This document shows positions 4,541 through 5,142 of a stretch of 5,142 bases of DNA, one piece after another. Each line of letters begins with the position of its first letter. Position 1 is the first letter of the stretch. Under the pieces are notes generated by a model. It saw only the letters and a program-made list of their open reading frames with translations. It was not told where the DNA came from and did no database searches. A program made the position numbers and the translations under genes. The stretch is from Escherichia coli (GTDB taxonomy: Bacteria; Pseudomonadota; Gammaproteobacteria; Enterobacterales; Enterobacteriaceae), in the NCBI RefSeq assembly GCF_003334315.1, contig NZ_QOWR01000097.1. One strand, written 5' to 3'.

Positions 4541-4622
4541 TACATAAGTGTTAATGAGGGGCGGGGATAATTTGCCTTACCATCAACTTTCGTCAGCATT
4601 ACCAAAGAAAATGGTCATTCAC

Positions 4623-4659
4623 AGCACTCCGGGCAATCTGCCCGGAGTGCTTACTATTT
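4623..4659. terminator. Perfect hairpin with flanking T-rich tracts at the 3' end of the integrase gene; probable intrinsic terminator, possibly bidirectional
   Basis: 13-bp perfect stem AGCACTCCGGGCA (4623-4635) / TGCCCGGAGTGCT (4639-4651) with a 3-nt loop ATC. On the + strand it is followed directly by TACTATTTT; on the - strand it starts 2 nt after the integrase stop (4654-4656) and is followed after a 10-nt gap by CATTTTCTTT. Confidence 0.55.
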
Positions 4660-5142
4660 TAATGGATTGTTAATCTTTGCATACTCAAAGGGGCTGATAT
4701 GCTCTTCTCGATTTGCATCCAGAAAATCCGCCCACCACTGTAGCATCAGTCGGCGTTCTTCCAGGTGTTCGGCTTTATGGATATAAGCTGCTCGTACTCC
4801 GTTACGCTCCTGATGACTCATCTGCCTTTCAACAGCATCGCGGGACCACAAACCTGATTCAATCAGCGCACTGCATGCCATAGTCCGGAATCCATGACCA
4901 CAGACGTCCTTGGTTGTGTCATACCCCATTACCCTCAGGGCTTTATTTACGGTGTTTTCACTGATTGGTTTACGCGGGTCATGTGCTCCCGTAAAGATCA
5001 GACCATTTTCGCCTGCCCATGCCTGAAGTTCTGCCAGTATGGCTACAGCCTGTTTGCTGAGAGGAACAAGATGTGGTGTTCGCATCTTGGAGCCCCGGTG
5101 TGAGAATTTTACGCCAGGCAGAGGTTCGCGTTCGGCTGGAAT
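4654..5142 (-). CDS. P4-family (CP4-57 IntA-like) tyrosine recombinase/integrase, C-terminal catalytic part; the N-terminal part lies beyond the right edge of the window
   Basis: The minus-strand frame stays open from the window edge (…IPAEREPLPGVKFSHRGSKMRTPHLVPLSKQAVAIL…) to the TAG at 4656-4654. It contains the catalytic-domain hallmarks HGFRTMACSALIESGLW (H-x-x-R) and RAAYIH (nucleophilic Tyr region), and the C-terminus ...LMLQWWADFLDANREEHISPFEYAKINNPLK is typical of P4-like island integrases. The Met at 5085 reported by the ORF track is internal. Confidence 0.88.
   Translation of the reverse strand: MPAEREPLPGVKFSHRGSKMRTPHLVPLSKQAVAILAELQAWAGENGLIFTGAHDPRKPISENTVNKALRVMGYDTTKDVCGHGFRTMACSALIESGLWSRDAVERQMSHQERNGVRAAYIHKAEHLEERRLMLQWWADFLDANREEHISPFEYAKINNPLK

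Follow-up and report, generated by a model that had tools for sequence, protein, structure and literature searches.

The stretch of Escherichia coli DNA considered here (the window, 5,142 nt in full) carries at its right-hand end, on the minus strand, the 3' part of a P4-family ('intP4'-type) tyrosine integrase gene (4654..5142), which encodes residues 259-420 followed by a TAG stop and was recognized from its open frame, its match to the PRK09692 protein model and its identity to intact genes. Leftwards of the stop there follow a terminator-like hairpin with a perfect 13-bp stem and a 3-nt loop (4623..4651, given without a strand), as found by inverted-repeat search, folding, a terminator scan and an alignment of 10 variants; a segment of non-coding integrase-module DNA between the hairpin and the end of an insertion sequence (4541..4622, minus strand), delimited with two alignments (A1 and A2) and containing a motif, AAAGAAAAT on the + strand, that does not vary among relatives; and the truncated left end of an IS3-family element (4253..4540, minus strand), ~90% identical to ISEc52 in an alignment with the copy of strain 2018-02-2CC. 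The Phd/Doc module, fimbrial genes and one end of an IS1 lie further to the left.

The integrase frame, translated from 5142 to 4654, comprises 162 residues with no internal stop, the TAG being at 4654-4656; the gene leaves the window at the right end, and the source sequence ends 774 nt before its start. The catalytic Lys (KMRTPHLVPL), the HGFR motif (His-x-x-Arg), the second His (MSHQ) and the Tyr (RAAYIH), as assigned by eye from a pairwise alignment with K-12 IntA and not from a structure, are all inside the window portion, while the first catalytic Arg (residue about 238 of 420) falls outside it and is present in the identical full-length protein. The preliminary description of this DNA, made from the letters alone, had taken the C-terminal catalytic part to be intact up to its stop, and the open frame and the motifs agree with this. 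The integrase may be active in the source genome. Three short open frames on the + strand (4548-4673, 4713-4883 and 4894-5103) were considered chance antisense frames, the ATG of the first not being kept in relatives.

The missing N-terminal part was sought in the closest complete genomes, as the preliminary description had proposed, and was found to be intact, giving a protein of 420 aa with three domains. In this full-length relative the Pfam models Arm-DNA-bind_3 (PF13356, E=2e-29), Phage_int_M (E=3e-27) and Phage_integrase (E=8e-17) were matched, with 3ju0 and 2kkv as PDB domain matches; the N-terminal arm-binding (PF13356) and central domains were thus read in the relative, outside the window itself. 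The full-length protein is 55% identical at the amino acid level to the integrase of phage P4, over 97% of its length (E=8e-153), and 36% identical to the IntA protein of the CP4-57 element of K-12 (b2622). The window part matches the NCBIfam PRK09692 integrase with E=2e-25. Against this model, which we take to be the IntA-type one, the protein scores 250 bits for a cut-off of 434, so that it is not an equivalog. Thus, the initial label 'P4-family' was right and 'CP4-57 IntA-like' holds only at the family level, the protein being closer to P4 Int.

With IntA it shares the family, the three-domain layout and the position by the RNA gene used for attachment, in spite of the low identity. K-12 IntA presumably adjoins ssrA (tmRNA); the K-12 annotation around it gives smpB as a neighbour and the CP4-57 boundary, the RNA gene not being listed there. 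Close orthology to IntA, or use of the ssrA site, was set aside on the identity and PRK09692 values and on the tRNA-Phe neighbour found in all relatives. Phage P4 integrates at leuX. The likeness to its integrase (X51522 / NC_001609) extends from the sequence identity to the arm-type N-terminal domain and to an attachment core that lies 150-200 bp upstream of the start in both; unlike the window, P4 has no hairpin after the integrase stop, and it is a replicating satellite phage as opposed to the decayed island met here.

The last 601 bases of the window (4542-5142) coincide, at 100% identity, with the end of an intact 1263-bp integrase gene of strain 2018-02-2CC. For strain PEC389, 100% identity extends over positions 205-5142, and 34 complete genomes contain at least 80% of the window. 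A copy of the integrase gene (80-95% or higher nucleotide identity) is present in 3386 of 5426 complete E. coli genomes, usually one in each. The allele of the window (at least 99% identical) accounts for 66 of 3387 matching records and nearly all others are 80-95% identical; by these counts it is a minority allele of a common gene.

The neighbourhood to the right was read in 18 relatives with complete genomes, namely PEC389, HeN100, 2018-02-2CC, HCP6S3_I2, SC516 and YZ22MPE6, which share the allele or the cargo, and 12 carrying more distant alleles. In 17 of the 18, the start of the intact integrase gene lies 197 bp from a full tRNA-Phe gene on the same strand. For five of the six that share allele or cargo (all but YZ22MPE6) the tRNA is pheU, with dicD and dsbD, which are core genes, directly past the complete tRNA. 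The order in PEC389, HeN100, HCP6S3_I2 and SC516 is fimbrial genes, Phd/Doc, a 'PdcA' fragment, a truncated transposase, the 1263-bp integrase gene, 197 bp, tRNA-Phe(GAA), dicD, dsbD and cutA, and it is the last three genes that identify the tRNA as pheU. Strain 2018-02-2CC has the integrase end of the window, different cargo and the same pheU site. All 12 of the more distant alleles keep the 197-bp spacing from tRNA-Phe, either at pheU (by dicD) or at pheV (by yqgA/speC). Projection of this arrangement onto the window would place the integrase start at ~5916 and the tRNA at ~6114-6189, i.e. ~1 kb past the right end. The adjacency was read in relatives, the source sequence stopping inside the gene at base 5142, and the same right-hand neighbourhood, tRNA-Phe and island edge, would be expected in the source genome. 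The integrase had been predicted to adjoin a tRNA or tmRNA gene, with the island edge just past the right end of the window. In the relatives a tRNA is indeed the partner and a tmRNA is not; the edge does lie to the right, but about 1 kb off, and with one relative that differs.

This relative is YZ22MPE6, which shares the cargo. Here all that remains of tRNA-Phe beside the integrase is its 3' 48 nt, beginning with the anticodon stem (locus L028, 8410-8460), and past this fragment come the remnant of a restriction subunit, an IS1, a DUF932 gene and antirestriction island genes. The arrangement looks like either tandem occupancy of that tRNA by a second element, or a rearrangement at it or a break inside it. 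It provides an exact precedent for the possibility that the integrase of the source genome is a stranded relic, parted from its tRNA when another island inserted at the same tRNA or when IS elements rearranged the DNA, so that the true border would not be found just to the right. The IS1-mediated deletion described below for the source genome at 204/205, and an IS1-linked rearrangement of the same island in PEC389, point the same way. Against it stand the five of six relatives of the same allele or cargo in which the tRNA is complete, with dicD and dsbD beyond it, and the fact that the attachment-site sequence still adjoins the integrase even in YZ22MPE6. A stranded relic is therefore regarded as quite unlikely, and an integrase beside a complete tRNA-Phe as the better description of the source genome.

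Islands of this kind have been described. The intP4 gene is the sole gene conserved in all pheV islands and is immediately adjacent to the tRNA (PMC11537424), and the integrase of the GI-pheV and GI-pheU islands of that work resembles the one discussed here in lying directly after tRNA-Phe, in reading inward, in being a P4-type recombinase, in the far-end string TTCGATTCCGAGTCCGG-CACCA and in having mosaic, IS-broken cargo. A difference is that the paper treats pheV, whereas the genomes with the same allele and a complete tRNA all have the island at pheU. For a related P4-like integrase, that of PAI II536 at leuX, specificity for its tRNA site is documented (PMC3202238).

A scan of species genomes for the pattern of the integrase 3' end returned nine loci, of which four were examined. 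Related integrases were found at tRNA-Leu(CAA) in Yersinia alsatica (L021) and in E. albertii and at tRNA-Phe in an Enterobacteriaceae MAG, and at a second Yersinia locus no tRNA was seen; the other five loci, in MAGs of unrelated phyla, were taken for chance matches. In E. albertii (L014, 9707-11300) the related integrase by tRNA-Leu(CAA) has the last codons and the hairpin variant of one E. coli pheU allele (L008), which suggests that the 3' end of the integrase module may be exchanged between islands that use different tRNAs.

The opposite boundary was located in one relative, HeN100, where the interval between pheU and cadC is ~34 kb long and includes the genes of the window, the RADAR gene rdrB, an Hsp70-like cluster, YeeU/CbtA and other CP4-44-like genes. 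At the far end (L003, 5783-5804) the string TTCGATTCCGAGTCCGG-CACCA forms a 22-nt copy of the tRNA 3' end in direct repeat, equal to the last 23 nt of the tRNA minus one G (22 of 23 nt, with a 1-nt deletion). A gapless search of the HeN100 far end with the 23-nt tRNA 3' end gave no match because of this deletion, and the repeat was found by eye and by alignment. The sequence beyond it is identical to the K-12 backbone downstream of pheU, including the integrase pseudogene yjdQ and cadC. Table 1 of PMC11537424 gives this string as the attR of many pheV islands. A direct repeat on the far side, the search for which had first been recommended, thus closes the island in HeN100. Furthermore, since the fimbrial genes, Phd/Doc and the IS remnants are found inside the HeN100 interval, and none of the fimbrial, Phd/Doc or IS sequences of the window occurs in the corresponding pheU-cadC interval of K-12, they can be regarded as island cargo, in agreement with what had been supposed of them.

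Taken together, the observations indicate, with a probability of about 0.88, that the stretch forms the distal end of an integrase module belonging to an E. coli island of the tRNA-Phe (pheU) type, with the hairpin as the probable terminator of the module. According to this reading, the P4-family recombinase, with arm-binding, core-binding and catalytic domains, would recombine a site on the island with the last 22-23 nt of tRNA-Phe (TTCGATTCCGAGTCCGGGCACCA); integration would rebuild an intact tRNA beside the integrase gene and leave a partial tRNA copy at the far end. The integrase gene would start 197 bp downstream of the tRNA and read into the island, with the remaining part of the gene, the tRNA and the edge of the island lying ~0.8-1.05 kb to the right of the window, and the IS3-family remnant, Phd/Doc, the fimbrial genes and IS1 on the left would be cargo. 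The hairpin would act as a factor-independent terminator and 3'-end stabiliser of the integrase transcript, and it would also stop antisense transcription arriving from the cargo side, e.g. by read-through of phd-doc. Once the window is placed at the integrase-proximal end of an island of the pheU type, the fimbrial operon, Phd/Doc and the IS debris are explained as accessory DNA. An integrase with tRNA-Phe as its partner, the attR string and cargo that is mosaic and broken up by IS elements are already known in kind from the published pheV/pheU islands. The conserved and covarying stem-loop after the stop is a small addition to the published picture, and the locus otherwise matters little beyond annotation.

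The pheU site itself bears traces of an older occupant. The K-12 yjdQ pseudogene (b4654, between pheU and cadC; L005, 3192-3354, and in HeN100 L003, 5805-6180) represents this integrase module in collapsed form, at the same tRNA: the spacer next to the tRNA, the first and the last codons of the gene and a decayed hairpin, TAGTAAGTGCTCCGGACAATT, are still there. It differs from the module of the window in having lost nearly the whole gene, and its hairpin is no longer able to pair. A related island therefore sat at pheU before the present one was added in tandem.

Several rearrangements were noted on the cargo side. In PEC389 (L001, 1-4900) IS1 copies join the island to the yqiG/glgS region, so that its far part has given way to glgS and a truncated fimbrial usher gene with a chaperone gene and a fimbrial gene. 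From their position we take these last three to be yqiGHI; in K-12, glgS and yqiGHI lie far from pheU, more than 1 Mb away. The arrangement suggests either an IS1-mediated inversion or a scaffolding artefact. In the window, positions 1-204 consist of one end of IS1 fused to the interior of the fimbrial usher gene, and, with respect to the relatives, a fimbrial subunit gene (annotated as yehD), the chaperone gene and the first part of the usher gene are deleted. This junction at 204/205 was met in no complete E. coli genome of the collection, in which the whole window is nowhere contiguous, and the source genome has undergone at least one IS1-mediated deletion, at that place. With the tRNA fragment of YZ22MPE6 and the 1-nt deletion in the far-end repeat also in view, islands of this group are visibly decaying and may no longer excise.

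Two other features of the cargo deserve a brief description. On the + strand, 28 nt past the last fimbrial stop (3360), there is a strong terminator-like hairpin (3388-3414) with an 11-bp stem, a 5-nt loop and the tail TGTTTTTATC, which is probably the terminator of the fimbrial operon. Directly after doc, a 102-nt fragment (4151-4252), annotated by RefSeq in relatives as 'PdcA protein', is cut where the IS3-family remnant starts, so that Phd and Doc may formerly have belonged to a unit of three genes.

The structure that follows the integrase stop was as initially described, a perfect 13-bp hairpin: its arms (4623-4635 and 4639-4651) are 13 nt long and 100% complementary, and the stem ends 2 nt from the stop. 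The calculated free energy is -25.7 kcal/mol for both strands; 200 shuffles of the window yielded no perfect 13-bp inverted repeat, and folding of the hairpin in a 91-nt context gave z-scores of -5.2 (+ strand) and -4.5 (minus strand) with respect to shuffled sequences. A scan of the whole window against Rfam gave no match at E<=1. The better U tract had been placed on the + strand, and this also holds: among the first 8 nt past the stem, T occurs five times on the + strand and twice on the minus strand in the window allele, and the terminator scan flagged the + strand alone, with the tail TACTATTTTA. The T tract of the + strand is the complement of the last integrase codons, TTA AAA TAG, while on the minus strand of the window allele the conserved AUUUUCUUUG starts 11 nt after the stem. 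The fold of the + strand pairs AAAAUGGU with ACUAUUUU beneath the main stem, which hints at a possible two-tier helix.

A GC-rich stem-loop is present 2-7 nt past the stop in every relative aligned except 2017.17.03CC, which has an unrelated 9-bp hairpin about 20 nt from the stop. All 10 allelic variants form the inner 8 pairs, with no unpaired cell in the alignment; one of these pairs occurs as UA, GC, CG or UG and another as CG or UA, indicating compensatory substitutions. Changes on both sides are seen at 4 of the 13 pairs, two of these among the inner 8, and the outer four pairs are limited to the clade of the window. The covariation score exceeded those of all 500 shuffles and of all slid controls; these stem statistics derive from 10 distinct variants in a hand-registered alignment (one N in short loops, one sequence shifted by 1 nt) and offer modest support. 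On an automatic alignment RNAalifold found only a weak consensus, the 3' arm being misaligned where loop lengths differ, which is why the hand-registered alignment was used. A canonical sense-strand U tract directly after the stem is present in three alleles, as AUUAUUUU (L012 and L025) and AUUGUUUU (L022), and on the opposite strand every allele has a U-rich tail, owing to the Leu-Lys-stop ending of the integrase. In two alleles, L008 and L023, the stems are identical and the 5-nt loops are exact reverse complements of each other (TGATT vs AATCA, at the equivalent of window 4635-4639), a flip of the kind that template switching at palindromes would make. A hairpin as a general feature of P4 integrases was rejected, phage P4 having none at this place. 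No terminator is mentioned in the main comparative paper on these islands (PMC11537424).

The pattern of variation bears on whether the palindrome acts as RNA at all. A 13-bp perfect palindrome with a 3-bp spacer is shaped like an operator bound by a dimeric protein, and in different strains IS elements have inserted repeatedly ~30-150 bp from it, both of which would speak for a site of protein binding or recombination. However, the sequence varies while the pairing is kept, and in one allele an unrelated hairpin occupies nearly the same place, so that a structure is favoured over sequence recognition. A dispersed REP-like repeat was rejected on copy number, the median being one matching place per genome, always in the integrase flank, and the absence of an Rfam match also argues against it. 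A protein-binding or recombination site, or a repeat of this type, is thus considered highly improbable compared with an RNA hairpin.

The direction in which the hairpin would work is a further question. The preliminary description had offered two options, a device mainly insulating the integrase from cargo-side read-through or one that works both ways; the latter is the better one, a sense-strand U tract being present in some alleles, and the mainly insulating role is less favoured. Neither direction corresponds to a textbook terminator, since there are only 2 U in 8 on the sense strand, and the U tract of the + strand is constrained by coding. That the hairpin acts on the integrase transcript alone, as its own terminator or mRNA stabiliser, would be consistent with a stem 2-7 nt past the stop in 10 alleles and with the canonical sense U tract of three of them. 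Conversely, that it is only a barrier to antisense read-through would be consistent with the window allele passing the terminator scan on the + strand alone and with the scan detecting no + strand terminator-like site between the doc stop (4143) and 4623. Against either of these one-directional roles stands the layout of A tract, stem and U-rich tail on both sides in most alleles. One-directional action is weakened further by the + strand U tract being inseparable from the coding constraint, by the gene order in several relatives, in which the next gene is co-directional with the integrase and there is no convergent transcript to stop, and by strain Survcare321, for which inspection of alignment A1 by eye suggests that the convergent gene has a terminator of its own, a stem and T run ~200 nt away. 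One-directional action is accordingly a lesser, though tangible, possibility, and the hairpin is most likely the two-way intrinsic terminator of the integrase gene, inherited with the module. Termination in either direction, its preferred direction and its strength are predictions from sequence. Antisense transcription would be stopped by virtue of the A-rich last integrase codons, which provide the U tract of the opposite strand. In comparison with bidirectional intrinsic (Rho-independent) terminators, the hairpin has the same GC-rich stem, short loop, A-rich stretch on one side and T-rich stretch on the other, but in the window allele the sense U tract begins ~11 nt after the stem.

The DNA between the hairpin and the insertion sequence belongs to the integrase module as judged from the relatives, whose homology to the window reaches variably to 4565, 4581 or 4599. 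The IS3-family remnant, which we take to be IS911-like, retains the start of orfA and a terminal inverted repeat that stops at 4540, so that 4541 is the first integrase-linked base; in relatives it is labelled 'transposase, incomplete' by RefSeq, and it interrupts DNA that was originally next to the integrase module on that side. The invariant AAAGAAAAT motif is able to pair with the last integrase codons, lengthening the stem. It is conceivable, but unlikely, that the ~110 nt past the integrase stop represent a conserved functional unit marking the inner border of the module, in which the stem-loop, AAAGAAAAT and the conserved spacer would form a two-way insulator, with the edge as a preferred site of IS landing or replacement. 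The 4540/4541 boundary (TCA|TACATAAG) is abutted at the same nucleotide by two related IS3-family elements, ~90% identical at the left end, which face opposite ways: the window has the left end there, its orfA pointing away from the integrase, and 2018-02-2CC (L006, 7990-8010) has the right end of a frameshifted ISEc52. On the other side of this ISEc52 copy a matching target duplication is missing. The shared abutment could be due to end-targeted insertion or to the replacement of one IS by another.
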